Source: a virus
Taxonomy: Duplodnaviria > Heunggongvirae > Uroviricota > Caudoviricetes
Reading direction: 5' to 3' (one strand)
DNA length: 64,000 nucleotides
Virus record (IMG/VR): IMGVR_UViG_3300009285_002354
Location: 1-64,000 of that record
Part shown: one piece after another, positions 33,416-64,000 of the stretch
Numbering within the stretch: position 1 is the first letter of the stretch
Layout of the letters: the number at the start of each line of letters is the position of its first letter
Notes under the pieces: model-generated
Told to the model about the DNA's origin: nothing
What the model saw: the letters and a program-made list of their open reading frames with translations, nothing else
Database searches by the model: none
Translations under genes and position numbers: made by a program

Positions 33416-33427
33416 GATGGTTTCCCT

Positions 33428-34252: not shown

Positions 34253-34259
34253 ATCTCAC

Positions 34260-48484: not shown

Positions 48485-49090
48485 TCATGGCTTCTCCACG
48501 ACAATGTGAAGCTCTTCTTGAATCTCCCCTTCTGCCCGTCCGGTCGGAACGCGCTTCAGGTCATACTTGACTCCCAGCCCCGAAAGCAGAGCTTGGAGCC
48601 GGAAGTTGCTCAGATCGGTGTACCAGTACCCATCCACTTCGCTGTGCTCTTGCCGGTGCGCCGGAAGTGCCGGGAAGTATCCCCGATAGGTCATAATGTA
48701 GGCGTACTTTCGGGCCTGCTCGACCGCCTTGCGAAGAAAGCCGTCCGGGTCCGCAACGTGATCGATCGTGGCGCGCGAGAAGATCAGATCAGCCCGCTCC
48801 GTGAACTCCGCATGCTGGAAATCGGTGCAGAACCAGCCATGATGCGGTCGGCCGCGATGAAGACAATGCTGAATGACCTTCGGGTCGTGGTCCACACCGA
48901 AGTAGATTTTGTCCCCGAAGAAGTCGTCATAGAACCAGTGCTTGCCGCAGCCGATCTCCATGACACTGTGAATGTCCGCCATGCGGGGTCTGAGCCAGTC
49001 TATGAAGACCTGGTGCGGGACCTCCGCTTCATTGTGGATCCACTCGTACCATTCGGGTGATTTGAAGGCATGGGGATTTACGTTTGGCAT
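48485..49090 (-). CDS. class I SAM-dependent methyltransferase
   Basis: Motif I VMEIGCGKH. 201 aa. Confidence 0.7.
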   Translation of the reverse strand: MPNVNPHAFKSPEWYEWIHNEAEVPHQVFIDWLRPRMADIHSVMEIGCGKHWFYDDFFGDKIYFGVDHDPKVIQHCLHRGRPHHGWFCTDFQHAEFTERADLIFSRATIDHVADPDGFLRKAVEQARKYAYIMTYRGYFPALPAHRQEHSEVDGYWYTDLSNFRLQALLSGLGVKYDLKRVPTGRAEGEIQEELHIVVEKP

Positions 49091-49203
49091 GAGGTCTCCT
49101 TACTTGCAAACAAGGCTATCTGGCCAGTCCTGCTCTCTCTTATGGGCACGCCTGTGTCTATCGAAGTCAAACGCTCGCAGTCGATGGCAACGAGTGCAAG
49201 CAG

Positions 49204-49827
49204 TCATGCTTTGTCCTCGCCGATTTCGGATTCGTTCTCGGCGTTGCCCGGCTTTCGCGGATCGTGGAATTCGCAGCATGACGTGGCGGGGACCGTCTTA
49301 TCTCGCCATGTGCTTTTCCGCGACCGGCAGAATCCGTGAGTCAGTTGACCCTGGATCGCGCGCCAGTCCGTGCAGCCGAGACATCTTCGCTTGGGCGTGT
49401 AATGCCTCTGGTCTGGCTTACCCTCCTTCGTCACTCTCATCAGCTTGGCGGGAGGGGCAGGCTCCTCCACCAAATGCCTGCACGACATATCGACGTGGAG
49501 CACGCCTTGTATCCACTTCGCGGGGTAGCTCGTCTTCTCCTTCACCTCGATGCCGTAGTATTGCAGGAACCCCTTCGCGGCGAACCGGCCCTCCGTACAG
49601 GTGAGGGATGGCTTGAGCCAAGTGCGTGAGCCGGAGGACTTTTCCGCCGTGAACGTCATCGTCGCCAGCTTGGCGTTCCTGTCATAGCGAAGCTCGACGT
49701 AGGGCATCTTCCGGTCCAAGTTCACCCCGAGCGCGGCCGTGATGTAGATCGTGCCTTTGGGCGTGATCGTGACGAGCGAGGCCCCTTTCGTCGTGAGCTT
49801 CTGGCCAGTATAGAGTTCCAAGACCAT
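49204..49827 (-). CDS. hypothetical protein with a Cys-rich C-terminus (207 aa)
   Basis: ORF; C-terminal CLGCTDW...CCEFH. Confidence 0.45.
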   Translation of the reverse strand: MVLELYTGQKLTTKGASLVTITPKGTIYITAALGVNLDRKMPYVELRYDRNAKLATMTFTAEKSSGSRTWLKPSLTCTEGRFAAKGFLQYYGIEVKEKTSYPAKWIQGVLHVDMSCRHLVEEPAPPAKLMRVTKEGKPDQRHYTPKRRCLGCTDWRAIQGQLTHGFCRSRKSTWRDKTVPATSCCEFHDPRKPGNAENESEIGEDKA

Positions 49828-49915
49828 CTGTCAGTCTCTCCTAGGATTGATGTACCCCGCCGCCTGCGATCATGCGGGCCGTGCGCTCCGATCTGCTCAC
49901 GTATTGACGGGTAGT

Positions 49916-50236
49916 TCACTCAACGATCACGTTCTCCTTCAGCTTGACGAAGATATCCACGTATTCTCCCGCATGATCTATCCGAACCGAGTCTATCCTG
50001 CACACGATCTTCTTCGGGTCCGCACCGCCCCGGATCGTCCTCTCTACAACTTTCACTCCTTGACACACGATGACGTCCGCCTTGTCCATCATGTCCTTCA
50101 AGATAGATGGTGGGACGTTCGAGGAGAACCAGACTCGATGGTCATAGCCGGGCAGGGCCTTGCGCATGGTGTCCACCCTTCCCCAATACGCCCACCCACG
50201 AACATCGCAGGTCCACAAGACAATGGGCTTACGCAT
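49916..50236 (-). CDS. GT4 N-terminal-domain-like mini-protein, paralog 3
   Basis: MRKPIVLWTCDVRGWAYWGRVDTMRKALPGYDHRV. Confidence 0.4.
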   Translation of the reverse strand: MRKPIVLWTCDVRGWAYWGRVDTMRKALPGYDHRVWFSSNVPPSILKDMMDKADVIVCQGVKVVERTIRGGADPKKIVCRIDSVRIDHAGEYVDIFVKLKENVIVE

Positions 50237-50495
50237 GGTGCCTTGTTGCCTCCGCAGAATCGATCTGGCCACAGACTATTTGTGGCCCACCGAATTCACG
50301 TATCGCCTCTCGGGAGTTCAAGAGGACAACTCTCGTTCGCGTGAGTCCGTGAGCGACAATCTTGCCGCATCGCAGACACTGCAGAAAAACCACTTTTCCA
50401 CGGTCCTGCAATCCGGTTACGGAGTCCGTCACTTTGACATCGTAGCTACCAACTGCTTCCCAATAGTGCTTCCCAAACAGGCATCTCCAATTCAT
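50229..50495 (-). CDS. zinc-ribbon protein (DUF1660-like C..GKH.W...CLRCG)
   Basis: CLFGKHYWEAVGS...CLRCGKIV. Confidence 0.4.
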   Translation of the reverse strand: MNWRCLFGKHYWEAVGSYDVKVTDSVTGLQDRGKVVFLQCLRCGKIVAHGLTRTRVVLLNSREAIREFGGPQIVCGQIDSAEATRHHA

Positions 50496-51109
50496 CTTCG
50501 CATCCCCTCATAGGCCTCGACGGCTTCATGTGCTTGTGGTAGTGTGTCCGTACCGAATGGCCTCAAGGTCGCTACCAGAATATCCGCCGGTGTCACACCC
50601 TCTTCAAACCGGATCCAGTAGTCGGGATTGATCTGCGTTACGATCATCTGGACAATCTGGGTAACTGTGACCTTCTGCCACTGGGGAATCCCCAGCCAGA
50701 AGTAGCGGATGTCATCGATGAGGATCACATGATCTTTCACTGGATGATCCGCAATGGCGCGTAACTCATTCAGCAGAGGACATGGACTGACGCCTTGTTC
50801 CAGTGGGGCCTCGCCGGTTGACCAGTGAGAATCCAGCCAGAAGACCGCTGGTTCCTCGACGTAGCGAAGAAGTCCCTTGAGCACCTGGCCCCCATCCCCC
50901 AATAGAATTTCGACGCTGGAGTTCCCTGCGAATCGCTCAAATGCTCTTTGATAGACGTCGGGATTCGCCTCGATGGAGTAGAGTTTCTCAAAGCCATGCT
51001 CGATGGCGTTCTGCAGACCTTCCCCTTTGGCGGTCCCTGTCTCAATGAAAATCCGGCGATTGCCGGCGTATCGCTTCAGAAGCTCTGGTTTCAGTGTACT
51101 GTTGTTCAC
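50492..51109 (-). CDS. SAM-dependent methyltransferase (FkbM-like)
   Basis: IETGTAKGEG motif I. GTG start with a CCGGAGAA SD; the longer track ORF is an N-terminal extension. Confidence 0.6.
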   Translation of the reverse strand: MNNSTLKPELLKRYAGNRRIFIETGTAKGEGLQNAIEHGFEKLYSIEANPDVYQRAFERFAGNSSVEILLGDGGQVLKGLLRYVEEPAVFWLDSHWSTGEAPLEQGVSPCPLLNELRAIADHPVKDHVILIDDIRYFWLGIPQWQKVTVTQIVQMIVTQINPDYWIRFEEGVTPADILVATLRPFGTDTLPQAHEAVEAYEGMRR

Positions 51110-51159
51110 TTGGGTTTCTCCGGTGTACAAATGATGTTGACGTTGTATCACTTTGCTCA

Positions 51160-51660
51160 CTAGAACAACCACCGAAGGATGGGCCACTTGTTCGGTCGCT
51201 TTGTGGCATTGACTGCCAATGTGTACGTCTGTTCGCATGGGTCCGTCACCGTACCGGGCGTGTCCACCGCTCGCAGGTAGAAATACGTCACGCCCCGCGG
51301 CAAATCCCCACTCAGGACCAGTTTGCCCGCCGTGTTGTCCGCCGCAAGAGTGAATCCCACTGGCCCTTGTGTCAACTCGACGAAAAATGGATCGCCCTCT
51401 GGGTCGCACGCGCCGATACTGTAGTTCCACTTGCCAGCCCTCGCCTCGGCCGGCTTCAAGAGGATGCCGACGATCTTCGCCTGATCAATCGGAAACGGAC
51501 TAGCGAGCGGATCCACGACGACTACCAGGCAGTTCACATCCGGTGCCTTGGCCGTGAATATGGCCTTTGGCAGGAGTCCCGCCACGCAGACTCCTGCCAG
51601 CAGGATCAGGCCAGCAGCGAATACGAGACAGTTTCTCTTATTCATGGTATTTCCCTTCAA
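51160..51660 (-). CDS. exported/membrane-anchored protein with an Ig-like beta domain
   Basis: N-terminal signal/TM NKRNCLVFAAGLILLAGVCVAG. Confidence 0.5.
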   Translation of the reverse strand: MKGNTMNKRNCLVFAAGLILLAGVCVAGLLPKAIFTAKAPDVNCLVVVVDPLASPFPIDQAKIVGILLKPAEARAGKWNYSIGACDPEGDPFFVELTQGPVGFTLAADNTAGKLVLSGDLPRGVTYFYLRAVDTPGTVTDPCEQTYTLAVNATKRPNKWPILRWLF

Positions 51661-52648
51661 GGTTTACGGTTCGATCTTCCTGTTTGGCGATCCATGTATA
51701 GGTCTTCTTCAAACCCTCACACAGAGGCGTGTTGGGTTCCCAGCCGAGGACTTGCTTGATGAACGTGTTGTCGCTGTTGCGGCCGCCTACGCCTTTCGGG
51801 GCGTCAAGATCGTATGTCCGTTCCAGCTTGATCCCCGCGAAGCCCTCGGTCATCGTGACAAGGTCATTGATCGTCACAAGTTCCGTCGAGCCCAGGTTGA
51901 CCGGCGTGGCGATCAGTTTGTCACATCGAGTTATCCGGTCGATGCCCTCGACACAATCATCGATGTACATGAAGCTGCGGGTCTGCCGGCCATCGCCCCA
52001 GATTTTGATCTCATGCTTGCCGCTTCGCTTCGCCTCGCTCACTTTTCTGCAGATGGCAGCCGGTGCCTTCTCACGACCATCGTTCCATGAGCCATTGGGT
52101 CCGAAACAGTTGTGAAAACGCGCGATGAAGGTCTTCATTCCCCGCTCATGCCAGTACTCTCGACAGAGCATCTCCGTGTAGAGTTTCTCCCAGCCGTAGC
52201 CTCTCTCTGCCATGGCGGGATAGGCGTCGGACTCCTTCAGAGCCGTGGCGTTCGGATTCTGCTGAAGCAGCGTAGAGTACACGCAGGCCGAGCTTGAAAA
52301 AAAGTACCGCTCCACTCCTGCGCGGTAGGCGGCCTCAAGCATATGTACGTTGATCAGCACGCTCCGCATACACTCGATCCTGAATCGCTCGATGAAGCCG
52401 ATTCCGCCCATATCGGCAGCGAGCTGGTAGACCTCCGTGGCCCCTTCGCACGCGCGCCGGCAGTTCTCCAGGTCCGTCAGGTCCAAGCAGAGACATTCAA
52501 CGCCGGAGTCATCGTGTCGCTGATGCCATTGCGCGAGGGGTTTTTTATCGACTGCCCGGATCGACCAGCCAGTCTCTAGAACGCGATTGCAAAAGTGCTG
52601 CACCAAGTATCCGCCTATGAAGCCGCCTGCTCCGGTGACTAAGATCAT
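51638..52648 (-). CDS. NAD-dependent nucleotide-sugar epimerase/dehydratase
   Basis: MILVTGAGGFIGGYL (GxxGxxG) and YGWEK (YxxxK). 336 aa. Confidence 0.85.
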   Translation of the reverse strand: MILVTGAGGFIGGYLVQHFCNRVLETGWSIRAVDKKPLAQWHQRHDDSGVECLCLDLTDLENCRRACEGATEVYQLAADMGGIGFIERFRIECMRSVLINVHMLEAAYRAGVERYFFSSSACVYSTLLQQNPNATALKESDAYPAMAERGYGWEKLYTEMLCREYWHERGMKTFIARFHNCFGPNGSWNDGREKAPAAICRKVSEAKRSGKHEIKIWGDGRQTRSFMYIDDCVEGIDRITRCDKLIATPVNLGSTELVTINDLVTMTEGFAGIKLERTYDLDAPKGVGGRNSDNTFIKQVLGWEPNTPLCEGLKKTYTWIAKQEDRTVNLEGKYHE

Positions 52649-52959
52649 GGGTTCTCCTTTGGGGTAAATTCACCCTCTGCCAGCATCCCGTTCTCGACTG
52701 TTGGCTCGGTGTAGGCTTTTTGGATCATGCGAGTCAGTTGCGCCTGCTTCTCGTAAAACTCTTTGTCTGAACTCTCGACCCCAATCCTGGAACGCCGTAG
52801 GTCATTCAGGTCCGGCAGATTCCATAGCCACAAGGTCTCTCTCGCTAGGTTCCACGCCACGTCATAACCGTCGCCCCATATCTTCCGGCAGCGATCATGG
52901 GAGCAACCATCGTGTTTCTGCCAGAACCGCAATTTCTTGAAGCAATAGCAGCAGATCAT
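52645..52959 (-). CDS. hypothetical zinc-binding protein
   Basis: MICCYCFKKLRFWQKHDGCSHDRC. The longer track ORF would overlap the upstream gene. Confidence 0.4.
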   Translation of the reverse strand: MICCYCFKKLRFWQKHDGCSHDRCRKIWGDGYDVAWNLARETLWLWNLPDLNDLRRSRIGVESSDKEFYEKQAQLTRMIQKAYTEPTVENGMLAEGEFTPKENP

Positions 52960-52972
52960 ATTCGCGCTCCTG

Positions 52973-53194
52973 TCACTCGACTTGCTTTGCCTTGATCCAC
53001 TTGGCGATTCGCCTGCCAATTCTGGATTTGATTTCGTCAGCCTCCATCTGATTCCACTCCGGCACCAAGTCACAGAGGGCTTCAACATCTCTAGCCAGCC
53101 TCTTGACGCTCTTGGCATCGGCATTCATGATGATTCTCAGTTGTAGGGTGACTGGGCCAATAGGCATGGTCATGCTCCTGTCATCTCCCGACAT
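52973..53194 (-). CDS. hypothetical small protein (73 aa)
   Basis: ORF. Confidence 0.4.
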   Translation of the reverse strand: MSGDDRSMTMPIGPVTLQLRIIMNADAKSVKRLARDVEALCDLVPEWNQMEADEIKSRIGRRIAKWIKAKQVE

Positions 53195-53198
53195 ACCT

Positions 53199-54206
53199 TC
53201 ACGGATCGTAATAACGTCCCCAGCCGGTCATTTCGCGGTAAACATCCACGATGTCCCTGGCTCGCTGCTCCAGCGAATGCTTTTCGTGGACCATCTTCTG
53301 TGCGGCCGGCGCGATAGTTTTCCATGCGTCCGATTCCAAGACCATCGGAATCTGGTTCACGCTCTCGATCTCGACATAGGTTTCACCCGGAATGAATCCG
53401 CTGGCCACCATCAGGGGCATGTGATGACTGACGAGACAGGCGCCGTGGTTGCAGACCTCGTAGAACTTGGGGGGAATCTGAAGGTCATAGATGCCGCCGC
53501 TGAAGTAGTAGCGAGTGCGCGCCAGCGCGTGACGATACTCTTCATCGGACAGTGTGAACGTACTGCCTGTTGGGTTGCCGGAGAGAACAATGTCCGGCCG
53601 ATTCATCTTCCGGAGGTACTTCCACACGGCATCCCTGAATGGATACGTCCCCGACATCTTGCCGGTGCACATCCCGGCAATGGTCTTGTTCGGGTTGTAC
53701 TCGGTGATGTTCTTGACGTTGAACCAGGGCAGGTAGACCACTCGGCAGTTATGTGCTGCACATTGCACCACAAGATTCGGCAGGACTCCGAGCTGGGGCA
53801 CGGTTGCGATTCTCTCTGGCGGATCGAGAGGATACTGAAGGCTCAGAACCAGATTCGGCTTGACCTTTTCAAGGAAGACCTCGAACGGCTGCCGATAGAC
53901 GCCAATGTAGTCCGAAATCGCGGTCCACACGAAATCGGCCGGGCGCCGCTTCGGGCACTCGAAAAGCTGCACGTAGGCAATGTCCGCCGTTCCTTCCGGG
54001 GGATCGTAGTCCCCACCGTCAAAGCTGTTGGCGCCGTGGGGTCTCGGCGAGAGAACGATCTCTGCGCCAAGCTCCTTCGCGATCTGCTGCTGAAGGGCGA
54101 TACCATAGGCGTCGGTCCAGTAGTTGCCCCCACCCTGGCCGACTCCGCCGTTGGTCTGATCGTTGGCGGCGAGCACCTTGTAGCAAGAGACGAGTCTCAT
54201 GGTCAC
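53199..54206 (-). CDS. CgeB-like glycosyltransferase (Glyco_trans_1_2 C-terminal domain)
   Basis: C-terminal PKFYEVCNHGACLVSHHMP...FIPGETYVEIES...EQRARDI resembles the CgeB-family C-terminal domain. Confidence 0.55.
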   Translation of the reverse strand: MTMRLVSCYKVLAANDQTNGGVGQGGGNYWTDAYGIALQQQIAKELGAEIVLSPRPHGANSFDGGDYDPPEGTADIAYVQLFECPKRRPADFVWTAISDYIGVYRQPFEVFLEKVKPNLVLSLQYPLDPPERIATVPQLGVLPNLVVQCAAHNCRVVYLPWFNVKNITEYNPNKTIAGMCTGKMSGTYPFRDAVWKYLRKMNRPDIVLSGNPTGSTFTLSDEEYRHALARTRYYFSGGIYDLQIPPKFYEVCNHGACLVSHHMPLMVASGFIPGETYVEIESVNQIPMVLESDAWKTIAPAAQKMVHEKHSLEQRARDIVDVYREMTGWGRYYDP

Positions 54207-54583
54207 TCCTTGTATGGATCGTAGTCAACCTCGCCACTCTCAAATCCAGGGTGACGTTTGCTGCGATCGATCGTCACCGGGGTCACGCAAAGTTCCCGTG
54301 GAATGGACACGGGCTTACCTTGTTCGGGTTCAACAACGGGAAACCTCGCGCCCTCTGCCGTTGGCGCAAAACTCGGGTGATAGATGCGAATATAGAAGCA
54401 ATCGTCGAAAGGCACATACTTTACCGACGTCGCCACAGCATCTGGCGGAATCTCTTTCCATCGAGGAAGCTGGATGGTCTCATGCCCGCAGGCGTTTTGT
54501 AAAACGGCCAGAATCGCCTGTGTATCGACATGCAGAAGAACGCATCGTCTTTCCTTCAGGACATCTACTTGCGGTGTTTTCAT
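54203..54583 (-). CDS. hypothetical protein (126 aa)
   Basis: ORF. Confidence 0.45.
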   Translation of the reverse strand: MKTPQVDVLKERRCVLLHVDTQAILAVLQNACGHETIQLPRWKEIPPDAVATSVKYVPFDDCFYIRIYHPSFAPTAEGARFPVVEPEQGKPVSIPRELCVTPVTIDRSKRHPGFESGEVDYDPYKE

Positions 54584-54598
54584 AGGTCATACTCCTAG

Positions 54599-55075
54599 TT
54601 AGTCTTTGGGGCTAGTGGATTCCACGAGGGGGACAACGTCTGATACTTTGATAGGGTGTCGGTCCACATAACAGGGGCAGGCGCTCGTAGAAGGTGAATT
54701 GCTCCGGCCACAGAGAGGACATACCCAGCCGACAGGGCTGTTGGGAATCCATTTGATCTGCGGATTACTCAGCGGGTGATTCGGGCACTTCGTCTCGTGC
54801 TCGCCCGCGGTATTCAGTTGGCAGAATGGGCATTGGTACGCTGGATGATGTGGTGAGGACTTCGATGCGTTGGTCATGGACTTGTCCTCGAAACTTTCTT
54901 CCATCCACTGTTTGATAAGGGCCCGATCTGCGGGATTGAGGCGCACACTCATGCCAACCCCTTGATGGTCGATGCAGGCGAACATACAGTCGTCCACATC
55001 TGGACTCAATTCAAAGCGATGCCCATCCCGATGGATTTGCAGGATTCTACCGGCACGAATCGCTTGGTCTTGCAT
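54599..55075 (-). CDS. hypothetical zinc-ribbon protein (158 aa)
   Basis: CPFCQ...CPNH...CPLCGRSNSPSTSACPC. Confidence 0.45.
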   Translation of the reverse strand: MQDQAIRAGRILQIHRDGHRFELSPDVDDCMFACIDHQGVGMSVRLNPADRALIKQWMEESFEDKSMTNASKSSPHHPAYQCPFCQLNTAGEHETKCPNHPLSNPQIKWIPNSPVGWVCPLCGRSNSPSTSACPCYVDRHPIKVSDVVPLVESTSPKD

Positions 55076-55150
55076 GGTAAGGTCTCCTTGTCAGTAACTA
55101 TTGTAGAACCGGACATGGGTGATATTGGCCGGGAGCTTGGCAATCTCGAT

Positions 55151-55372
55151 CTAAAAACCCTCGCGACCATCATCCCTCCACTTCTTGGCCACATCGGATT
55201 CTTCTAAATCAACTTCAACGCCGCGAGCATCCGGTTCTTCGCCATCGAAGAAGTCGCTCACTTCGTCCGGTATCTTCGCTCCTGCCGCTTCGCAGGCATC
55301 CCAGACGGCCTTCATCTTCTTCCACTTCTCGTCGGGCGGTCGAAACCCGACAACATGCGTACTCATTGACAT
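55151..55372 (-). CDS. hypothetical acidic small protein (73 aa)
   Basis: ORF. Confidence 0.4.
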   Translation of the reverse strand: MSMSTHVVGFRPPDEKWKKMKAVWDACEAAGAKIPDEVSDFFDGEEPDARGVEVDLEESDVAKKWRDDGREGF

Positions 55373-55648
55373 TTCAGGTCCCCTTCACAGAATCAAACGC
55401 ATAACGCCATAGATGGCAAGTGCGAGACTCCCAAGCATAAGGATCCATCCAACGCAGCATAGCCACAACCAGCAGAATATCTCGGTAAGATCAAGGAACT
55501 TCTCGAAAGCTTCATTGAGATTGAAACGCATAAACACACCCTCACCCCAGGTCTCCTTATCTGGACTTTTCCACTATCAAGATGAAATTCAGAACAACGA
55601 TGACGAGGGTTGCGATCTGCACATACAGCAAGGACATAGATTGACTCC

Positions 55649-57418
55649 TCAACCAAAATTCCTCTGCATCCAAAGGTGCAACATCAGGATCAGCCATATC
55701 GGATGGCCCATGTTCGTCTGGCCCTTGAGATGCGCATCGAGCACAGAGGCGACCTTGGGGCCGTCCAGGATTGCCCAGGGCCAGTTCAAGTCCGTCGTCA
55801 TGTCCACGAGCATCTGGCGCCCGATCTCGCTGCGGAACCATTCCCCGACCGGCACACTGAATCCTCGCTTGGGCCTCAGAAGGACGGAGAGAGGGACCAT
55901 GTCCCGGAAAGCGTCTTTCAGAATGAGCTTGCCGGTGTTGCCTGCGATCTTGAGGGAACTAGGAATCGCCAGCGCCAGCTCAATGACCCGATGATCCAGG
56001 AACGGACAACGCGCCTCCACGCTCGCGGCCATGCTTGCGCGTTCCATCTTGACGATGATGTCATTGGGCAGATAGGTCCTCGTATCTAGCCACATCATTT
56101 GATTCAGCAAGTCATTGCCAGGGAACATGGCGGCCTGCTGAAACATCCAGCCCAACGTATGCGGGCCGATGATGGACTTTGCGAACTCCGGATCGAGTAT
56201 ATGGTTGACGACGCGGAACGGCATGACAGAGAGCCAGGGAATGTATCCCACGATCCCTGCCTTGCCGTCATAGACCCAGTATCTCTCATACCCGCCGAAC
56301 GCCTCATCCCCACCATCCCCCGTCAAGGCGACCGTGATGTACTTCTTTGATTCCTCTGCCAGAAGCATTGTGGGAATCGCAGAGCAGTCCCCAAACGGCT
56401 GGTCGTACTGATCTACGATCCTCTGCGCCATCTCGGGCAGTTGCGGAAGCTGCACGATCGCCTCGTGGTGGATCGTACCCAGATACTCCGCAGTCTGCTT
56501 TGCTAGGGGCAACTCGTTGTAGGAGCTTTCCGCGAACCCCATGGAGAAGGTATGAAGCTCTTTCAGGTGCTGCTTGGCGACGGCGGCGATGATGGCGGAA
56601 TCCACTCCACCCGAGAGATAGACGCCCAAGGGGACATCGGACTCAAGGCGGCAGGCGATGGCCTCGCTCACGACTTGCCGGACTTTCACGGTGAATCTGT
56701 CGCCTATGTCCGTGTCCCCATCATTCGGGCGCGGCCCCCACCACTTCACGACATCGAGCTTGCCCTCCGCCGGCCGATAGGCAACGTAGTGACCCGCCGG
56801 CACACACACGATGCCCTTGAATGCGGTTTGAGGCTCAGGAACGTACTGGAGAGAGAGATAGTGGTACAGCCCTTCGGGATTGATCTCCTTGTGGTATCGC
56901 GGGTGCGCCAGGATTGCCTTAATCTCCGAACCCACCACGAAGATGTTGCGCGATTCATCAAACCAATAGTAGGCGGGTTTTTTGCCGAGGCGGTCCCGAG
57001 CAAGATAAAGAGTCTGTGTCGCCCTATCCCAGATACCTATGGCGAACATCCCATCAAGTTGGTCGAGGCAGGATACCCCTTCCCTGTCCCATAAGCGACC
57101 GATCACTTCTGTGTCCGAGTGAGTCTTGAATGGCACGCCGACAACACTCAGATTGTGCTGGAGCCTGCGATGCCCATAAATCTCACCATTGAACACCAGA
57201 TCGACCTTGCCGGTATGCATGGGTTGCCGGCCGCCCTCCCGGTCGATGATTGCAAGCCTTCGCATGGCCATGTTGACGGCCCAGTCTTTGCCCACTATCG
57301 AGAAGTCGCCGTAGTCATCGGGACCTCGATGGATGATCGTGTCGGCCATCTGTTTGACCACAGTGGTATCAGGCTCAACGAACCGACGACTGCCAGCCTC
57401 AAGCACTATGCCACACAC
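55649..57418 (-). CDS. asnB: asparagine synthetase-family glutamine amidotransferase (AsnB/WbpS-like)
   Basis: N-terminal MCGI (Ntn Cys), PP-loop YLSGGVDSAIIAAVA. 589 aa. Confidence 0.9.
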   Translation of the reverse strand: MCGIVLEAGSRRFVEPDTTVVKQMADTIIHRGPDDYGDFSIVGKDWAVNMAMRRLAIIDREGGRQPMHTGKVDLVFNGEIYGHRRLQHNLSVVGVPFKTHSDTEVIGRLWDREGVSCLDQLDGMFAIGIWDRATQTLYLARDRLGKKPAYYWFDESRNIFVVGSEIKAILAHPRYHKEINPEGLYHYLSLQYVPEPQTAFKGIVCVPAGHYVAYRPAEGKLDVVKWWGPRPNDGDTDIGDRFTVKVRQVVSEAIACRLESDVPLGVYLSGGVDSAIIAAVAKQHLKELHTFSMGFAESSYNELPLAKQTAEYLGTIHHEAIVQLPQLPEMAQRIVDQYDQPFGDCSAIPTMLLAEESKKYITVALTGDGGDEAFGGYERYWVYDGKAGIVGYIPWLSVMPFRVVNHILDPEFAKSIIGPHTLGWMFQQAAMFPGNDLLNQMMWLDTRTYLPNDIIVKMERASMAASVEARCPFLDHRVIELALAIPSSLKIAGNTGKLILKDAFRDMVPLSVLLRPKRGFSVPVGEWFRSEIGRQMLVDMTTDLNWPWAILDGPKVASVLDAHLKGQTNMGHPIWLILMLHLWMQRNFG

Positions 57419-57864
57419 GAAACACCCCCGATCTTGTGGAGTTCAGCTTTGGCGGCAAGATAGGCAGCACGTGCGTTGTTCCTATCATCGAAATACCCCA
57501 GAAAATGCTGACGACCGTTCAGTACGATTTGAGCCGCGAACTTGCCGATATGACGATTCCAGCAGTAGCCTCTTGGGTTACTATTGAAAGTGTTCTCTTG
57601 GTGGCTTACATCTCTGATATTATCCCTGCGGTTGTCAAGGCCATTATGATTGATGTGGTCAACGTCCCTCCTGTCTCCAGGTTTCAACCCGAGAATCTGG
57701 CGATGCATGAAAATGAACGTAGGCTTCCCACTGATTCGTTGCTGACGCATAGCGTAGCAGGTGTGTTTGGATTTCAATACACACCACTTCCACTGCATGA
57801 GCCACTCGTAATCCTCATCGTCCACAAGGGCGAACTGTCCCCGCGTGAGGGGAATCTTCTTCAT
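57406..57864 (-). CDS. HNH homing endonuclease (HNH_3/AP2-like), paralog of 1337..1798
   Basis: MKKIPLTRGQFALVDDEDYEWLMQWKW...DHINHNGLDNRRDN. Confidence 0.8.
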   Translation of the reverse strand: MKKIPLTRGQFALVDDEDYEWLMQWKWCVLKSKHTCYAMRQQRISGKPTFIFMHRQILGLKPGDRRDVDHINHNGLDNRRDNIRDVSHQENTFNSNPRGYCWNRHIGKFAAQIVLNGRQHFLGYFDDRNNARAAYLAAKAELHKIGGVSCVA

Positions 57865-58058
57865 GGTTCCTCCTTGAGAAAAAAGGTGCCCCGACGATAC
57901 GACCGCTGCGCAATCCGAGGTGCGGAATCAAATGATCGTCGTCGGGGCATATGGTTGTCGTTGCGCAGCATACCGGTTCCCGTTAAGTATCCTCCGTTGT
58001 CCTACGGCTTCGTAGTGGACCTGTCAAGGGAAATTTTCGGGGATTTTCGAGAAGAGTC

Positions 58059-58757
58059 TCAGGCTCGGATCGTCACAATTCTGTACCTCGCCCGCTGGAA
58101 GTAGCACTTCAGATTCTCATCCCACAACTCCGGCCCCGAGGATTCATAGAGAATCCCCTTTACCAGCCAGTCGGTAGTGGCGACCTGTAGCCGCTCATTG
58201 AGCAGGGCATAGACACGATCTTGAATGGCCCGCCAGTCTCCGCCCCAGACCGTCACATCCAGAAAGATGCTCCTGGGGAACCAGCCCGTTTCCCCATTGA
58301 TCCGATACGTGATCACGGGGGTATTCACTTGCACTGGTGGATAGGCGTAGAAGACGCAGCGCGGTTTGGTCACCGCATCGTATCCGAGCAGATCGCCGAG
58401 TTTGCCCGCCGATGCATCCTCAGCGTCCCCCACGAGAATCTGATAGACGGCCTGCATGAGGGTCGCCCCGCCCGGAACACGCGCAGCCGGCGAGTAGTAG
58501 ACGACCTCATTGTAGTTCGTCTCGCCGTTGTAGGTCCATTTGACCCAATAGGTGTATTCAATGCCGTCACTCGGTTCCGTGAAGTCGTACTCATATGTAC
58601 CAAGGGCCGTCCGAGTCATGGGCGTATTGGCCGCCACAACAATTGCCCCGGTGTCATCCCGCTTCAGGCCAAAGGTGCTCGTGGGGTCACAAAGGACAAC
58701 ACTGTCCACATCGTGCGCCGCGTCATTGACTTGGGTTGTGAATCTCAGTGTCGCCAT
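58059..58757 (-). CDS. hypothetical protein (232 aa), possibly structural
   Basis: ORF. Confidence 0.45.
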   Translation of the reverse strand: MATLRFTTQVNDAAHDVDSVVLCDPTSTFGLKRDDTGAIVVAANTPMTRTALGTYEYDFTEPSDGIEYTYWVKWTYNGETNYNEVVYYSPAARVPGGATLMQAVYQILVGDAEDASAGKLGDLLGYDAVTKPRCVFYAYPPVQVNTPVITYRINGETGWFPRSIFLDVTVWGGDWRAIQDRVYALLNERLQVATTDWLVKGILYESSGPELWDENLKCYFQRARYRIVTIRA

Positions 58758-58758
58758 A

Positions 58759-59133
58759 CTAGTCCTGAATCACCGTGCTCTCGGTGCGGATGCTCGTTGC
58801 GGCCAGAGACGGTTCCGAGACCTCTTCGGAACATGCGATGTGCAGGTTGCCTGACTCTTTCGCGTAGAGATTGTACCTGACTCCCGTAACCCATGCCCCC
58901 GCGGGAATACTGGCTGTCCAGTGTCCGTCCGCTTGATGAGTTCCCGTTCCCGCGATCGCCTCAGTCGCGGACCATGTGCCTCCTGATGCATTGTACCACT
59001 TGCCGACATTGGCACCCGTGAGCGCCATGAGATAGAAATTCACGGTTCCCGATGTAATGGGGTCGCCGTTCGCCTTGGCTACCATGTCGGCATACATCGT
59101 ATTCGATTGTGCGGCCGTGAAGGATTGCATCAT
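58759..59133 (-). CDS. hypothetical protein (124 aa)
   Basis: ORF. Confidence 0.45.
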   Translation of the reverse strand: MMQSFTAAQSNTMYADMVAKANGDPITSGTVNFYLMALTGANVGKWYNASGGTWSATEAIAGTGTHQADGHWTASIPAGAWVTGVRYNLYAKESGNLHIACSEEVSEPSLAATSIRTESTVIQD

Positions 59134-60008
59134 CGACTCCTTCGTCGCTTCGTTCGCTCTGCGGGGGACAAACGGTAGAAGCTCAGGACATCCTCAGTTG
59201 GGAACTGCGCGCCGGTGTTCAGATCGATGTGGCGGCAGAGCAGGTTCGAGTCCACCAGGAAGGGATACTGTTTCTTGGCGATTTCCGGCCAACCGGCGCG
59301 CTTCAAGACGTTCTCTTTGATGACGCGCCGGCAGAACTCCAGGTCGGAAGTGCCCGTTCGCCGGTTCCATTGACCCGTCATGGGGTCCGTTACCATCGTG
59401 GATGGGGTTTCAAACACTTTGCGAGTGACTCTTTCCCCGATGGTTTTGTACGGCTTGGAGTCATTCCATAGGGTCTCCAGGATCGAGCGGTGAATCAGCA
59501 GCATCCCCGTAGTGACTCCATCCACCCAGAACCGCTCGCCGATTGTGAAATCCCGGAAGTAGCGGTTGCCTGTGCCCCGATAGACAAGCGGCTCAGACCG
59601 CGGGGCCTTGAGGAAGTACAGTCCGCTCACTATGGGAATGTCCTCCTCCATGATATATTCATCCATCCGCGTGAACAGATCCGCCGGCGCAACGACGTCG
59701 TCTTCCCAAAGCAGGAGCCATTGGAAGTTCTTTTGGAGCATATCCTCCGTCGCGAGATTCTGCGCGTCCGCAACGAGATAGTGCATCGGGACCGTGAAGC
59801 CAGCCCCGATACTGACGTCGGCGGACGACCAATTGCACGGAATAACCTGCCCATAGCGCATGATGGCCCACTCGATTCGGATATTTCCAAGAGTGGGGGT
59901 CGCGATCATGAGGCGCTTTCGGGGGTTCCCGCCGACGCCGCTTTTGATGATCGTGGTGTTGGGAGCGGGGTGCTCCTCGATTGACTTAGGTTTCTTCTGC
60001 GCCGTCAT
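59130..60008 (-). CDS. putative GT-A fold glycosyltransferase (GT2-like)
   Basis: IATPTLG N-terminal beta strand and an LLWEDDVV acidic (DxD-like) motif. Weak. Confidence 0.45.
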   Translation of the reverse strand: MTAQKKPKSIEEHPAPNTTIIKSGVGGNPRKRLMIATPTLGNIRIEWAIMRYGQVIPCNWSSADVSIGAGFTVPMHYLVADAQNLATEDMLQKNFQWLLLWEDDVVAPADLFTRMDEYIMEEDIPIVSGLYFLKAPRSEPLVYRGTGNRYFRDFTIGERFWVDGVTTGMLLIHRSILETLWNDSKPYKTIGERVTRKVFETPSTMVTDPMTGQWNRRTGTSDLEFCRRVIKENVLKRAGWPEIAKKQYPFLVDSNLLCRHIDLNTGAQFPTEDVLSFYRLSPAERTKRRRSR

Positions 60009-60290
60009 TTACATCATCTCCAATTCCCAAAGCGGTGCATTGGGCATATTCCTGCGTTGACGCAGACCGTCGCGCCATTCCTGAAGGTCTTTGATAGATA
60101 CATCTCTCGCCTTGAAACCAGCGACTATTGTATTCTCGCGAATCTTGTCAGCCATTTCGCATTTACCTTCCAGGCGCAACTCAGAGCGAACAGAGTCAAG
60201 AAACAGCATCAGCCAAGCCATCGGCGGTAGTGCCTGATCCTCTGTGGATTTGGGTTTCTTAGTCACTGGAAAGTTCCTCGCGCAAGTCAA
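60009..60290 (-). CDS. hypothetical small protein (93 aa)
   Basis: ORF. Confidence 0.35.
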   Translation of the reverse strand: MTCARNFPVTKKPKSTEDQALPPMAWLMLFLDSVRSELRLEGKCEMADKIRENTIVAGFKARDVSIKDLQEWRDGLRQRRNMPNAPLWELEMM

Positions 60291-60510
60291 TCAGCATGGA
60301 GAGGGTCTGGTCAAATCCGCACTGCTCTGCCATCTTGGCCATTGAATCGGGGCTCATGGGCAGTACATAGCGTTTATTTCGCTCCGCCCTCTTGGCCTCA
60401 ATGCGCAGAATCGCCTCATCTATGGCGGCAAGCGCGGTCGGTGGAGATTTCTTCTTGTCGGTGATTCCCACGATCGCCTCGTCTCTCAGTAGTGATCGTT
60501 CCGAAGACAT
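60259..60510 (-). CDS. hypothetical small protein (83 aa)
   Basis: ORF. Confidence 0.35.
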   Translation of the reverse strand: MSSERSLLRDEAIVGITDKKKSPPTALAAIDEAILRIEAKRAERNKRYVLPMSPDSMAKMAEQCGFDQTLSMLIDLREELSSD

Positions 60511-60526
60511 GCGGTTCCTTTCGGGT

Positions 60527-61054
60527 CTATTGCGGTTTCTTCCAAGTTGGCTTGCCGCTCTTGTCTTTGCGGGGTTCCAAAATCACTTCGATGCAGCCGG
60601 TGAAATTCGCGTCGTTACGGATGATCTTCCAAGGCTTCACCATGCCATAGGCCCCGTTGATATAAAGTGTATAATCGGGATCGAAAAATTGGAATGTGGC
60701 TTCGTTCGGGCACAGATAATGCTCCGGGTGCGCGTTGGCCAGGAATGAGTTGGCATACGGCGCCGAGAGAAATAGTTGTCCATCCCAGCGCGATATCCGC
60801 CAGAGCTCGTCCATCAGCTTGAACCGATACTTGGGCTCGATGTGCTCCCAGATATGGCACATGACAATCATGGTGCAGGCGTCGCTCGGGACCGGCCAGG
60901 GAAACTTCTGAATGTCGTGAACGATGTCCACGCCGGGAAGCTTCAGTCGGTCGATCCCGATGCACCCCTTCTGCTTGTTCGGGCCGCAGCCGACGTCGAG
61001 CTTTACGCCGGACATCTTCCCGAACAAGGCGCGGTTGTACCCGTGCGGTGTCAT
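60527..61054 (-). CDS. class I SAM-dependent methyltransferase
   Basis: Motif I LDVGCGPN. 175 aa. Confidence 0.65.
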   Translation of the reverse strand: MTPHGYNRALFGKMSGVKLDVGCGPNKQKGCIGIDRLKLPGVDIVHDIQKFPWPVPSDACTMIVMCHIWEHIEPKYRFKLMDELWRISRWDGQLFLSAPYANSFLANAHPEHYLCPNEATFQFFDPDYTLYINGAYGMVKPWKIIRNDANFTGCIEVILEPRKDKSGKPTWKKPQ

Positions 61055-61090
61055 AGTCGCTCCGTACTATACACTACGAAATAGTAGTTA

Positions 61091-61573
61091 TCAACTCGTC
61101 GTGTAGTTGATGTTGTAGGTAACGTTCACGTCCTGGCTCGTAGCGACCGCAGAGGAAGCGAACGTCTTGCCGCAGATGATCGTGCCGCTTGACGCGGCGA
61201 ACAGGCCGATATTGGCGATCGTGGCCGCGCCCAGCGTACCGTCGAAGCTCTGCGTGAACTGGGCCTGCGTGCTGTCGTTCAGCGCCGTGCCGACCGTGCT
61301 GTAGTAGTCGGTGTTAGAACCCGGCAACGCCACGGCATTCGATGCCGGATTCGTTCCGTTGCCGAGCATAGCGCCGGCGATCTGGACGGAACCCGCGGCC
61401 TTGGCGGGCGCGGCCAGGAAGCAATTGTTCAGCCCGTAGTTGGTGATCTGGTTCGGGATGTCCCCGGTGTCGCCCACGACCTTGCGGGTCTTCTTGTCCA
61501 CGACCTGAACGCGGAAGAACCCCTTGATGCCAATGGTGCAAACCGGCTCTCGCACTTTCGTTCTCTTTTTCAT
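61091..61573 (-). CDS. putative structural (jellyroll/fibre-like) protein
   Basis: 160 aa, rich in Gly/Ala/Ser/Thr/Asn, with a basic N-terminus. Sits between the giant repeat protein and the modification cluster. Confidence 0.4.
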   Translation of the reverse strand: MKKRTKVREPVCTIGIKGFFRVQVVDKKTRKVVGDTGDIPNQITNYGLNNCFLAAPAKAAGSVQIAGAMLGNGTNPASNAVALPGSNTDYYSTVGTALNDSTQAQFTQSFDGTLGAATIANIGLFAASSGTIICGKTFASSAVATSQDVNVTYNINYTTS

Positions 61574-61585
61574 ATCCGTCCTTTC

Positions 61586-64000
61586 TCATCTACGCCTTTT
61601 GAGCGTGACAAAGTACAGGTACGCCTGCGCCGACAGCACATATGCCGAAGGGGCGTCCAGTATCCCAATTGTGTCAGTCGCGGTGACCTCAAACACTGAG
61701 GTCCTCATCATCGAGGAATCGGCAAGGTTCACCAGGTCGAATATTTCGGCGGTCAACGGCATCAACTCACAGGTCAATGAGTCGGCCGCTGCGATTCCGT
61801 CCGCCACGTCAACCGGCAGCACCGGAATCAGCGTACACGATACCACACACTGCGAAGATAATGCAAGTCCATCTGTCTCGCTTATTTGTAATTTCGGCAG
61901 GAGGGCTACGTTCTCATCCTGGACGCCGATTTGCTCTGCGGCCAAAACCGAGAGCAGCCGAAGCTCTGCCGCCGGCGAATCAGTAATCCCAATCCCCTCG
62001 GAAACCGCGGCTTCAAGCATCCCGATCCGGACGATGGCAGCATCTGAAACCCCCACAGCATCGGACACATTCGCAGTGAAGTTGCTCAGGATCGCAAAGG
62101 CAGCATCCGAAAGCCCCAGAGAATCAACCGCAAGCGGCAGGAAATGGCTGATCTCGGCCGCCGCCTGATCCGAAACACTGATTCCGTCCGAAACTGTAGT
62201 GCTTATGGATGTGGTCTGGGCCTGAACGGAATCCGTAAGACCAATAGAATCAAGCCCTTGAAGAGCATAGTTGGGTATGATGCTTGCTGATTCTGCGAGA
62301 CTCAGGCTTTCGGAAACGCTGATTTCCAGTGGCGTAGCCTGAGTAACACTATTATCTGTCAGGCCGACGCTATCCAGGCAACTCAGCAGCAGCGGAGATG
62401 CTTCAGCAAGGACAGCTTCGCCTAGTCCAATGCCGTCAGCGACCGTCAGGACCCACTCCGCGCCGATCGTGGTAGAATCAGCCAAACTGACGCTGTCCGT
62501 TGCGAAAATCTCAAGGATCGGCATTTCGGCTGAGGCGGCCTCGGAGCACTGGACGGTGTCGGCGACAACCGCAAGCACGGGATTAGTCTGGAGCAGGACT
62601 GCATCCGACAATCCGACAGCATCAGAGACAATCAAAGCTATTCCGGAAGCAGATTCGACGGCTTCCGAGACACTAATGCTGTCTGTGCCGCTCACCAGAT
62701 AGGCGGATAGCTGCACCAGCGGAGTATCAGAGGTCCCAATTGCATCCGAGACACTCACCAGGAAATTGTCCAGATTGATACTGACGGCATCCGAGATCCC
62801 GATGGCCTCTTGCGATTGCGCCACAAGCCCCGTACTGCTGACAACCGACTCTGACACGCCCAAAGATTCTTGAACGGCGGTTTCCAGGACCGCGATCTCG
62901 ATCAGGGGGCTATCCGATAGCGCCAGAGAATCCTGAATTGCCACGAGCCGCGTCGTGAGCTGCACATTGGCCGCGTCGGTCAGTTGAACACTATCCGAGA
63001 CCGTCAGGGCCACGCTCGGGAGAACCGCGCTGGTTTCACTGAGCCCGAGGCCGTCCGAAACAAAGACTTGCAAGGCCGAAAGTTGAACAGCCGCACTTTC
63101 CGCCAATCCGATGCCGTCCGCAACCTCAACGATACGGTCAACGGCGGCGGCGGCTTCCTCCGCAAGGTCTATAGCCTCCGTAGTCTGCACCAAGAGAACG
63201 GGCAATTGCACGGCGGCGGCATCGGCGATATCGACGGAATCCTGGACGCCAACCATGAGTACGTTTAGACGCGCCTCCGCCGTATCGGCAAGTCCTATGC
63301 CGTCGGCAACCTCTTGAACGATGCCCGTCCCGGTGACGATCGACTCCGCAAGCGCGGCCGTATCGGCAACGGCCGCTTCCAGTACGGGCATTTCCAGTAT
63401 CGGACCGTCCGCTATCTCGCAGGCATCCGTGACGGCAATCAGCAGTGGCGTGACCTGGACGGCGACGACCTCGGCTACCTGTGCCGCGTCCTCGGCCTCG
63501 GCAATGATACTCGTATCTGCCGCCAGAGTTTCTGCCACACCTAGGGAATCGGATAGAACGGCCAGCAGCGGCGTGATCTGCACCGTCTCGGAATCGGTGA
63601 TTCCAACGGCGTCAAGCGAGACGGCAATCAGGGGGTCTATCTCGACCGCCTGCACATCACTGACGGCGATACTGTCCGCCACTGCCGCCAGAACCGTCAC
63701 ATTGACGCTTTCCGCCTCCGCAAGATCAATAGTATCGGATACGGCCACGAGCAGCGGCATTGCCTCCGCCGCAATCGCATCCGCCAGTATCATGCTCTCG
63801 GCGACAGTCACCAGCAGAGGCGTCGTCTCTATCACGGCCGCCTCGGTGATGTCAACAGCGTCTGCGGCCGTGGCCGCGATGCTGGTGGTGCAAACGACGG
63901 TATCGGAAAGCCCCGCCGCATCAGCGGCCTCGACTGCCAGGACGTCGATCTCGGCTGTCCCAAACTCGGCAAGGCCGATAGAATCCGAAACCTCAGCCAG
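61586..64000 (-). CDS. giant tandem-repeat protein (>800 aa; the 5' end lies beyond the window edge), probably a fibrous beta-solenoid-type virion protein
   Basis: At least 37 consecutive ~20-aa repeats with consensus p.L.v.VsDsiGl(S/T)DsA.vq.T (60-bp DNA period). The repeat continues to position 64000. Confidence 0.7.
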   Translation of the reverse strand: MAEVSDSIGLAEFGTAEIDVLAVEAADAAGLSDTVVCTTSIAATAADAVDITEAAVIETTPLLVTVAESMILADAIAAEAMPLLVAVSDTIDLAEAESVNVTVLAAVADSIAVSDVQAVEIDPLIAVSLDAVGITDSETVQITPLLAVLSDSLGVAETLAADTSIIAEAEDAAQVAEVVAVQVTPLLIAVTDACEIADGPILEMPVLEAAVADTAALAESIVTGTGIVQEVADGIGLADTAEARLNVLMVGVQDSVDIADAAAVQLPVLLVQTTEAIDLAEEAAAAVDRIVEVADGIGLAESAAVQLSALQVFVSDGLGLSETSAVLPSVALTVSDSVQLTDAANVQLTTRLVAIQDSLALSDSPLIEIAVLETAVQESLGVSESVVSSTGLVAQSQEAIGISDAVSINLDNFLVSVSDAIGTSDTPLVQLSAYLVSGTDSISVSEAVESASGIALIVSDAVGLSDAVLLQTNPVLAVVADTVQCSEAASAEMPILEIFATDSVSLADSTTIGAEWVLTVADGIGLGEAVLAEASPLLLSCLDSVGLTDNSVTQATPLEISVSESLSLAESASIIPNYALQGLDSIGLTDSVQAQTTSISTTVSDGISVSDQAAAEISHFLPLAVDSLGLSDAAFAILSNFTANVSDAVGVSDAAIVRIGMLEAAVSEGIGITDSPAAELRLLSVLAAEQIGVQDENVALLPKLQISETDGLALSSQCVVSCTLIPVLPVDVADGIAAADSLTCELMPLTAEIFDLVNLADSSMMRTSVFEVTATDTIGILDAPSAYVLSAQAYLYFVTLKRRR

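Follow-up and report, generated by a model that had tools for sequence, protein, structure and literature searches.

A candidate single-chain beta-helix virion fibre encoded beside methyltransferase and glycosyltransferase-like genes in an uncultured temperate siphovirus

The closest known single-chain right-handed beta-helix shafts are those of the two-partner-secretion (TPS) adhesins and autotransporters (EtpA, HMW1, HxuA, Vag8 and Hap). Beta-helices are also found in phage tailspikes and appendages, such as the tailspike of cyanophage Pam1, the gp12 pre-neck appendage of phi29, the CBA120 TSPs and the Klebsiella and Acinetobacter depolymerases, and in the atadenovirus protein LH3, which decorates the capsid surface. 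A Ca2+-dependent beta-helical protein, with an xGTGND calcium-binding turn, is represented by the antifreeze protein of Marinomonas primoryensis (PDB 3p4g). In mycobacteriophages, phage-carried glycosyltransferase genes have been proposed to modify the phages' own structural proteins.

The gene considered here is located at positions 61586..64000 on the minus strand of the window, that is, of the whole 64,000-nucleotide stretch of viral DNA that was analysed (IMG/VR record IMGVR_UViG_3300009285_002354), and it encodes an extremely acidic repeat protein with 145 Asp and Glu residues against 12 Lys and Arg residues (net charge of about -133). The gene travels with genes for a small protein (p160), a methyltransferase and a glycosyltransferase-like (GT-like) protein, and its product thus looks like a sugar-decorated, uncatalogued virion fibre. 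We regard the chances as evenly balanced that this protein is a glycosylated, single-chain beta-helix fibre on the virion surface of an uncultured temperate siphovirus. Compared with the TPS adhesins and autotransporters, it is far more acidic, has another core motif, is encoded within a phage structural module and lacks a secretion domain, a signal peptide (none was found in the complete protein of 962 residues) and any Pfam match, including matches to Fil_haemagg and Fil_haemagg_2 (804-residue fragment, E ≤ 0.01). PHROG and NCBIfam gave no match either, and the tailspike/depolymerase profiles Beta_helix and Pectate_lyase_3 were not matched in Pfam or PHROG. The helices of tailspikes are irregular, with 10–13 coils, insertions and a catalytic groove, whereas the present array would form 44 near-uniform coils with no sign of an active site. 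LH3, from a virus of eukaryotes, differs in that its short helix builds trimeric knobs and that, unlike the repeat protein, it shows neither repeat regularity nor accompanying modification genes. The xGTGND turn of the antifreeze protein is absent from the repeat protein, as are RTX GGxGxDxUx nonapeptides from its units, and there was no HemolysinCabind match in Pfam. The likeness to mycobacteriophage virion glycosylation lies in phage-borne glycosyltransferase genes proposed to act on the phage's own virion proteins; however, a fixed trio with an unannotated 160-residue protein is found here, inside the head module and beside a dedicated repeat fibre, it is not evident that the enzymes belong to the same families, and glycosylation is in this case a prediction from gene content.

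The sequence-only reading had described a giant protein whose reading frame ran off the window edge. The frame was as described: its stop codon lies at 61586-61588 on the minus strand, and it remains open to 64000, so that the window holds 804 codons (residues 159-962) and the stop codon and lacks the first 158. A 52-mer from the window end had no exact match among viral contigs, but the source contig was identified through its exact p160 protein. On this contig, which comes from a groundwater metagenome, the complete gene occupies positions 7100-9988 of L001 and is uninterrupted up to an ATG that shares a single base with the stop codon of the gene before it. The product of 962 residues (97 kDa) is large, but the word "giant" had to be given up.

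The repeat array (61643..64000, minus strand) comprises 37 complete units and one partial unit of 20–21 residues within the window, in agreement with the original count of at least 37, and 44 units in the whole protein, and is uniform throughout; each unit is a predicted beta-helix coil. The periodic, Asp-rich hydrophobic consensus that had been noticed was confirmed, with the core hydrophobic-x-hydrophobic-x-hydrophobic-x-D-x-hydrophobic-x-hydrophobic-x-D/E: the anchor position is D or E in all 44 units, a further D or E stands six residues past it in 43, and the hydrophobic positions are -6, -4, -2, +2 and +4 relative to the anchor. The proposed period of about 20 residues (60 bp) required correction, as the units succeed one another strictly in lengths of 21, 20 and 21 residues (62 residues, 186 bp), with one phase slip. 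The periodicity is well above chance: shuffled sequences averaged -0.51 (sd 0.065; lag 20), whereas the BLOSUM autocorrelation of the protein was +0.42 at lag 21, +0.29 at lag 41 and +0.78 at lag 62. A structural super-repeat of three units was considered as the source of the 62-residue periodicity and rejected: identity between anchored units of the same phase (0.32 and 0.28) was barely above that between units of other phases (0.28 and 0.25), and the lag-62 peak therefore reflects mostly the register that the length pattern imposes. The units had also been taken for near-perfect repeats prone to recombination and length variation, and neither part of this description survived. The mean identity of the 62-residue blocks is 24% at the amino-acid level and 41% at the DNA level, no exact internal DNA repeat exceeds 13 bp, and the sequences from three samples are identical wherever their contigs overlap. 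The DNA copies have diverged so far that Tandem Repeats Finder reported no array in 55000-64000.

Hydrophobic residues alternate strictly, as is usual in beta strands, and the suggestion of a beta-solenoid or fibre made at the outset was in part borne out by structure prediction. The AF2 monomer model is a solenoid, in every unit of which DSSP assigned two strands with a 2-residue turn between them; 44 coils of 20–21 residues, stacked hydrophobics and two strands per unit are the features of a right-handed parallel beta-helix. On the other side, the five models had low-to-moderate confidence (pLDDT 30 to 58), and the Foldseek search against PDB and BFVD gave no significant match; many tailspikes were among the structural neighbours. 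A single-chain right-handed beta-helix is best described as moderately supported. Each of the 44 units would then form one coil, the hydrophobic residues at -6, -4 and -2 and those at +2 and +4 would make two inward-facing strands, the tight turn between them would carry the invariant Asp, and a variable segment of 8–9 residues would close the coil. At 4.8 Å per coil, the 44 coils would stack into a stiff rod of about 21 nm.

The same data bear on a different architecture, a homotrimeric fibre shaft (triple beta-spiral or triple beta-helix) that would be built of intertwined strand-turn-strand elements, one from each unit, as in the adenovirus and reovirus fibres and phage needles. Phage fibres are usually trimers, which counts against a single-chain rod. 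The hydrophobic spacing of the units is compatible with a triple beta-spiral, since the 15-residue repeat of the adenovirus shaft presumably has the same spacing (-6, -4, -2, +2 and +4, with a small residue at +1), and both the strands and turn found by DSSP in every unit and the ceiling of pLDDT 58 on the monomer model would fit such an arrangement. However, the monomer was predicted as a solenoid, and we consider a trimeric shaft unlikely, though worth keeping in mind.

Downstream of the repeat-protein gene lies a trio of genes on the same strand. Its invariant first gene encodes p160 (61091..61573, minus strand; 160 residues), which belongs to no known family, with no match in Pfam, PHROG, NCBIfam or PDB (single sequence and profile). 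The second product is a class I SAM-dependent methyltransferase (60527..61054, minus strand; 175 residues), for which Methyltransf_23 was found below the Pfam cut-off and the profile of its homologues matched the PDB methyltransferase 3dli (E 3e-6); its gene follows p160 wherever the locus sequence extends far enough. The third is the GT-like protein of 292 residues (59130..60008, minus strand), 35–70% identical to its homologues in trio loci and probably a divergent GT-A-fold glycosyltransferase: Glycos_transf_2 weakly matched 3 of 25 family members (best E 9e-4), a WEDD segment is conserved in the alignments, and the best hit of the PDB search (single sequence and profile), STIV A197 at E 0.54, was unusable. 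Neither the methyltransferase nor the 292-residue protein matched NCBIfam, and their matches in Pfam and PHROGs were weak and below threshold. An accessory protein of 124 residues (58759..59133, minus strand) accompanies the trio in several loci, its homologues (40–63% identity) following the GT-like gene in L005, L009, L010 and L018.

Homologues of p160 with 33–72% identity were found on 38 viral contigs, and in the 38 viral loci fetched through p160 all three genes of the trio occur together wherever sequence is available. The repeat protein adjoins the trio in about 20 of these 38 loci according to the HMM, and in more according to periodicity, as in L018. In the reverse direction, p160 was found in six of seven loci fetched through homologues of the repeat protein (five of six distinct ones, L006 being a second assembly of the L005 phage); it is present at L005, L006, L007, L046, L048, L050 and L051 and absent at L047. 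A pattern scan of genomes with a three-sequence p160 alignment returned a single MAG contig, and the one genome lead to a phage with the module is a Sedimentisphaerales MAG. The repeat-protein gene co-occurs with GT-A-like and SAM methyltransferase genes in dozens of unrelated phage contigs, and in the phage described here a glyco-gene island surrounds the module. An AsnB-like enzyme was also considered as a modifier of the Asp/Glu ladders; this idea was dropped because its gene occurs only in this phage and is not part of the conserved module.

The array had been proposed as a substrate of the neighbouring glycosyltransferases on the ground that every repeat carried Ser or Thr. One of these residues is indeed present in 43 of the 44 units, but one unit has neither, and conservation of Ser/Thr does not exceed 45% at any position of the repeat, so that one fixed glycosylation site per unit becomes less likely. 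The gene neighbourhood, circumstantial but fairly strong, argues for the substrate role itself, and the methyltransferase and the GT-A-like enzyme probably add a (methylated) glycan to the fibre, to p160 or to both.

Both termini of the repeat protein may be concerned with attachment. The hydrophobic-basic tail remarked on from the start, AYLYFVTLKRRR (61589..61624, minus strand), indeed ends the protein and is conserved in relatives (variants FFTLKRRR, FFLIKHHR, FLMLKKHR, FFVLKKHH and FFLFCKRHR). It is confined to repeat proteins whose gene is followed directly by a p160 gene, and this adjacency rule correctly predicted a p160 gene after P0034. At the N-terminus, a short double EWxLGxP motif stands in place of the lectin-type domain (LamG, F5/8 type C) of most relatives; L015 has the same motif and also the 1-nt overlap of the start codon with the stop of the upstream gene. 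The upstream gene, translationally coupled to that of the repeat protein, encodes a protein of 549 residues, with which a PDB sequence search found nothing usable. We infer that the 549-residue protein probably supplies the distal domain of the fibre and that the C-terminal tail probably docks it on p160, the proposed virion anchor or decoration partner. These two putative docking motifs suggest, in a simple way, how modular fibres could be fitted to different virions.

The module invariably sits among the head or neck genes of the structural region, either between the major capsid protein and adaptor/head-completion genes or beside the portal gene, in genomes that carry T7-like portal and gp14 domains, an SU10-type adaptor or siphovirus tail genes. 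This position in several architectures points to a virion location for the repeat protein, and the rod would be a virion-surface fibre attached at the head or neck region, where it would serve as a spacer or an adhesion shaft. In the present phage the module follows the head-completion gene and precedes the tail genes, so that neck or tail-side attachment is equally possible. On the latter side, the protein could be the receptor-binding shaft of a tail or side fibre on the tail or baseplate, the trio of p160, methyltransferase and GT-like genes being an unrelated neighbour; the N-terminal domain of the relative P0001 is 33% identical to the window protein at 32648-33415, encoded by the last gene of the tail module, and the tailspikes among the structural neighbours also agree with this. 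However, the other architectures place the module by capsid, adaptor/head-completion or portal genes and not by baseplate or fibre genes, a complete GTA-like distal tail set is already present at 32648-39297, the link to the trio emerged from either direction of search, and the rule linking the C-terminal tail to p160 made a correct prediction. A tail fibre with an incidental trio is accordingly judged improbable.

A broader form of the preferred reading, a glycosylated virion-surface fibre, is that the four genes make up a self-contained, horizontally mobile virion-glycosylation cassette, in which the acidic rod would be mounted on the head or neck via p160 and would bear a methylated-glycan coat; we offer this tentatively. 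If true, environmental phages would have an unrecognised and widespread form of sugar display, for adhesion or masking.

A role outside the virion is very improbable. DNA-mimicking pentapeptide-repeat proteins have a beta-helix shape, and this shape together with the strong negative charge recalls such mimics, so that an intracellular decoy might be imagined, or, given a C-terminal tail superficially like surface-protein sorting signals, a tail-anchored protein of the host surface during lysogeny. However, the lack of a signal peptide, a hydrophobic stretch of 8–15 residues that is too short to span a membrane, the absence from the tail of LPXTG or PEP-CTERM motifs and of any NCBIfam match, the carbohydrate-binding domains of relatives and the constant position within the structural module all stand against both versions. 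That the chain is a disordered, low-complexity polypeptide, or the frame no real gene, is hardly credible: Ala, Val, Leu and Ser account for 53% of the residues, a biased composition, and a single-sequence AF2 run reached only pLDDT 43.5, with values below 30 over the last 190 residues, but confidence rose (up to 58) once an alignment was supplied, the 962-codon frame is translationally coupled to its neighbours, the hydrophobic alternation is beta-strand-like, position-specific conservation extends over 44 of 44 units, and hundreds of homologues keep the core motif with other unit lengths.

With a cut-off of E ≤ 1e-3 the repeat family comprises 1,691 cluster representatives, and with E ≤ 1e-10 it comprises 517. 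Pfam, PHROGs and NCBIfam do not cover this family of about 1,700 clusters (50% identity), and many metagenomic phage genomes would be better annotated with a profile of the repeat. A PDB sequence search with the repeat protein gave nothing better than E 0.19, and neither this protein nor p160 matched the phage head fibre and decoration families catalogued in PHROGs and Pfam. Among 50,697 phage records, tblastn found no counterpart of the repeat protein, P0001, p160 or the GT-like protein, and megablast of the region found no match, so that no cultured phage in this set carries the repeat protein, p160 or the GT-like protein; no description of the repeat or of the four-gene module was found in the literature. 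The combination of fibre, methyltransferase, GT-like and 160-residue proteins is a testable candidate for phage-encoded virion glycosylation outside the actinobacteriophages. Relatives of the repeat protein carry LamG, F5/8 type C, Beta_helix and other extracellular domains. One family member encoded in a phage head module bears the NCBI name LPXTG cell-wall anchor protein.

The repeat protein is encoded by a minus-strand ORF that ends in a stop codon at 61586–61588 and remains open to the window edge at position 64000 (804 codons in the window). The source contig L001 (ENA ERZ909573, 106,846 bp, groundwater metagenome) was recovered by exact-sequence look-up of p160, the 160-aa protein encoded directly downstream of the repeat gene (61091–61573), and carries the complete ORF of 962 aa (97 kDa, 44 units), so the product described in the sequence-only reading as a giant protein is large rather than giant. 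The same look-up also returned three shorter contigs, of which one belongs to the sequencing run that gave L001 and two come from other runs; all four contigs are identical to one another wherever they overlap. Over 12.9 kb, the window differs from L001 by only six SNPs, all located within 70 bp (55715–55784) at the 3′ end of the AsnB-like gene, a cluster that reflects local microdiversity, recombination or assembly. The repeat protein contains 145 Asp+Glu against 12 Lys+Arg residues, four of the latter belonging to the terminal KRRR. Its N-terminus (MAKQEWILGQPVQTYTTYEWVLGLPFVLFES) is non-repetitive and has no signal peptide, and its start codon shares one base with the stop codon of an upstream gene for a 549-aa protein (L001 5451–7100, outside the window).

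In the window, the array comprises 37 complete units plus a partial one, in agreement with the initial count of at least 37. When the units were aligned on the anchor motif, the anchor residue was acidic in all 44 (36 D, 8 E), with a second acidic residue six positions past the anchor in 43/44 units, hydrophobic residues at −6, −4, −2, +2 and +4, and a small residue at +1. BLOSUM autocorrelation peaked at lags 21 (+0.42), 41 (+0.29) and 62 (+0.78), against a shuffle control, computed at lag 20, with a mean of −0.51 (sd 0.065); therefore, the period is not 20. In place of the proposed ~20-aa (60-bp) period, unit lengths of 21, 20 and 21 residues recur as a 62-aa (186-bp) block, a pattern held for 12 rounds with one slip near residues 453–494. 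One unit in every three falls short of the others by exactly one residue (full-protein residues 40–784; window 61643–64000). The lag-62 peak is mostly a register effect, because same-phase anchored units are barely more alike than other-phase ones (identity of 0.32 vs 0.28 before the slip and 0.28 vs 0.25 after it). The repeats are old and diverged: the mean identity of the 62-aa blocks is 24% at the amino-acid and 41% at the DNA level, the longest exact internal DNA repeat is 13 bp, and no array was reported by Tandem Repeats Finder. With these values, the description of the repeats as near-perfect and recombination-prone proved wrong, and the earlier observation as a whole is real but overstated.

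Single-sequence AlphaFold2 modelling of residues 524–962 gave a poor result (pLDDT 43.5). A 26-row alignment built from the repeat chunks of homologues was used to model residues 214–523 (pLDDT 58), and in this model each unit regularly forms two strands connected by a two-residue turn that contains the invariant Asp. At the same time, a Foldseek search of PDB and BFVD returned nothing significant, so the predicted beta-helix fold, and with it the initial guess of a beta-solenoid or fibre, is only moderately supported. With 4.8 Å per coil, the 44 coils would form a rod of about 21 nm. The models made here cover monomers, and the shaft may instead be trimeric, arranged as a triple beta-spiral or triple beta-helix.

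The repeat protein had no match in Pfam, PHROGs, NCBIfam or PDB sequences, and tblastn against 50,697 deposited phage genomes found no match to it or to its close relative P0001, the repeat protein of locus L007. The family is nevertheless common in metagenomes: when 1.84 billion cluster representatives were scored with a profile built on the 62-aa block, 1,691 proteins matched at E ≤ 1e-3, of which 517 reached E ≤ 1e-10 and 47 reached E ≤ 1e-30. The 150 matches listed range from 263 to 3,136 aa in length. The core V-S-D-x-hydrophobic-G-hydrophobic-S-D is kept in the relatives, and the unit length differs among them (18, 20, 21, 23 or alternating 20/24 residues); this is how a structural coil containing a variable loop is expected to behave. 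Many relatives carry an N-terminal LamG, F5/8 type C or other beta-sandwich domain. One relative, P0172 (L050 8001–9824), is named in NCBI as an LPXTG-motif cell wall anchor protein of Candidatus Gottesmanbacteria. Its gene is accompanied by p160, methyltransferase and GT-like genes and belongs to a phage head module with terminase, portal, Mu F and capsid genes; therefore, this name, and perhaps the taxonomic binning as well, is doubtful. The repeat family and its four-gene module appear to be uncatalogued, and the fold itself is of a known kind.

Downstream of p160, the module continues with a SAM methyltransferase (60527–61054) of the class I SAM fold (profile match to PDB 3dli, E 3e-6) and a 292-aa GT-A-like protein (59130–60008) with weak GT2 and A197 signals. 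The unrelated podovirus-like contig L005 encodes homologues of these three proteins and of a 124-aa protein at 63–72% identity, whereas the repeat proteins of the two phages share only 31% identity. A search of viral contigs with p160 returned 38 loci, in which the order p160, methyltransferase, GT-like gene was found wherever the sequence was long enough. An HMM-detectable repeat protein was present in about 20 of the 38, its gene either immediately preceding p160 or following the trio at a distance of a few genes, and further loci encode related periodic acidic proteins missed by the HMM, such as the one with 23-aa units in L018. In the reverse direction, six of the seven loci fetched via repeat-protein homologues contain p160 (L005 and L006, which are two assemblies of one phage, L007, L046, L048, L050 and L051), and L047 has none. 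Within the structural genes, the module is always found in the head or neck part. It separates the capsid gene from an SU10-type adaptor gene in L007, L021, L023 and L025, from a head-completion gene in L046 and from a T7 gp14-like gene in L005; in L048 it directly precedes the SU10-type adaptor gene, in L050 it adjoins the portal gene, and in the present phage it follows the head-completion gene. Among the 50,697 phage genomes, no cultured phage carried the repeat protein, p160 or the GT-like protein, and the sole genome match among 185,579 species was a 5-kb contig of a Sedimentisphaerales MAG.

The C-terminal hydrophobic-basic tail (YLYFVTLKRRR here; also YFFTLKRRR, FFLIKHHR, FLMLKKHR and YFFVLKKHH) occurs only in repeat proteins encoded directly upstream of p160. 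Four others among 176 family proteins carry it, and for one of these, P0034, a p160 gene directly after it was predicted first and then confirmed. The N-terminal double EWxLGxP motif is confined to this repeat protein and that of L015. In both cases the gene directly upstream encodes a protein of ~550 aa (549 aa here, 558 aa at L015 10055–11731); these two proteins are homologous, with 47% identity, and the 1-nt stop/start overlap is the same. The 549-aa protein has no family match; by eye, it appears to have an N-terminal helical part followed by a beta-helix-like N-cap typical of pectate-lyase-fold proteins. Both terminal motifs would behave like docking signals. The repeat proteins encoded downstream of the trio (L007, L021, L023 and L025) lack the hydrophobic-basic tail at their C-termini and end in several short Trp motifs (AEWxPV ... 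WSKV), which may serve for docking in its place.

The window is genomic DNA of a temperate, siphovirus-like phage and encodes a DnaB-type helicase, a C5 DNA methylase, a tyrosine integrase (28052–29161) and a tail module of the gene-transfer-agent type (tape measure, hub and Rcc01698-like proteins); the major capsid and head-completion protein genes lie on L001 just outside the window. About 17 kb of sugar/modification genes (44128–60008) separate the head-completion and tail genes, the major tail protein being encoded at 43581–44150. Besides the GT-A-like gene, they include an HNH-like ORF (57406–57864) and genes for an AsnB-like amidotransferase (55649–57418), a GT1-like protein (53199–54206), an NAD-dependent epimerase/dehydratase (51638–52648), a QueC-like PP-loop protein (47434–48045) and a GT1 (44128–45135), so the reported adjacent glycosyltransferase cluster is real. 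The last tail-module gene (32648–33415) encodes a 255-aa protein that aligns over 230 aa with the non-repetitive N-terminal domain of P0001 (33% identity); therefore, one domain stands alone at the tail in this phage and is fused to a repeat shaft elsewhere. Attachment of the repeat protein on the tail side is possible in this particular phage.

The most economical reading is that the repeat protein is a virion-surface fibre, with its virion location, docking and glycosylation inferred from the gene neighbourhood. The shaft would be an acidic beta-helix rod; a distal binding domain would be fused N-terminally in most relatives and supplied here in trans by the translationally coupled 549-aa protein, and the proximal end would plug into p160 via the C-terminal tail. 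The methyltransferase and GT-A-like protein are obvious candidates for methylating the sugar and glycosylating the fibre or p160, respectively; for the proposal that the repeat protein is a glycosyltransferase substrate, the co-inheritance of these two genes is real but circumstantial support. A non-virion protein, such as a DNA mimic or host-surface protein, and a disordered polypeptide are both unlikely, because the gene sits in the structural module, relatives carry lectin domains, a signal peptide is absent, the hydrophobic tail is too short for a membrane span, and conservation across units is position-specific.

Additionally, the integrase gene is followed by that of a 492-aa PAP2-superfamily protein (30840–32318); this may be a gene for lysogenic conversion, with envelope lipids or carriers as its target. 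A 384-aa protein with no family match, encoded within the structural module (L001 4270–5424, outside the window), begins with a signal-peptide-like segment and is rich in Cys, Trp and Tyr in its C-terminal part.
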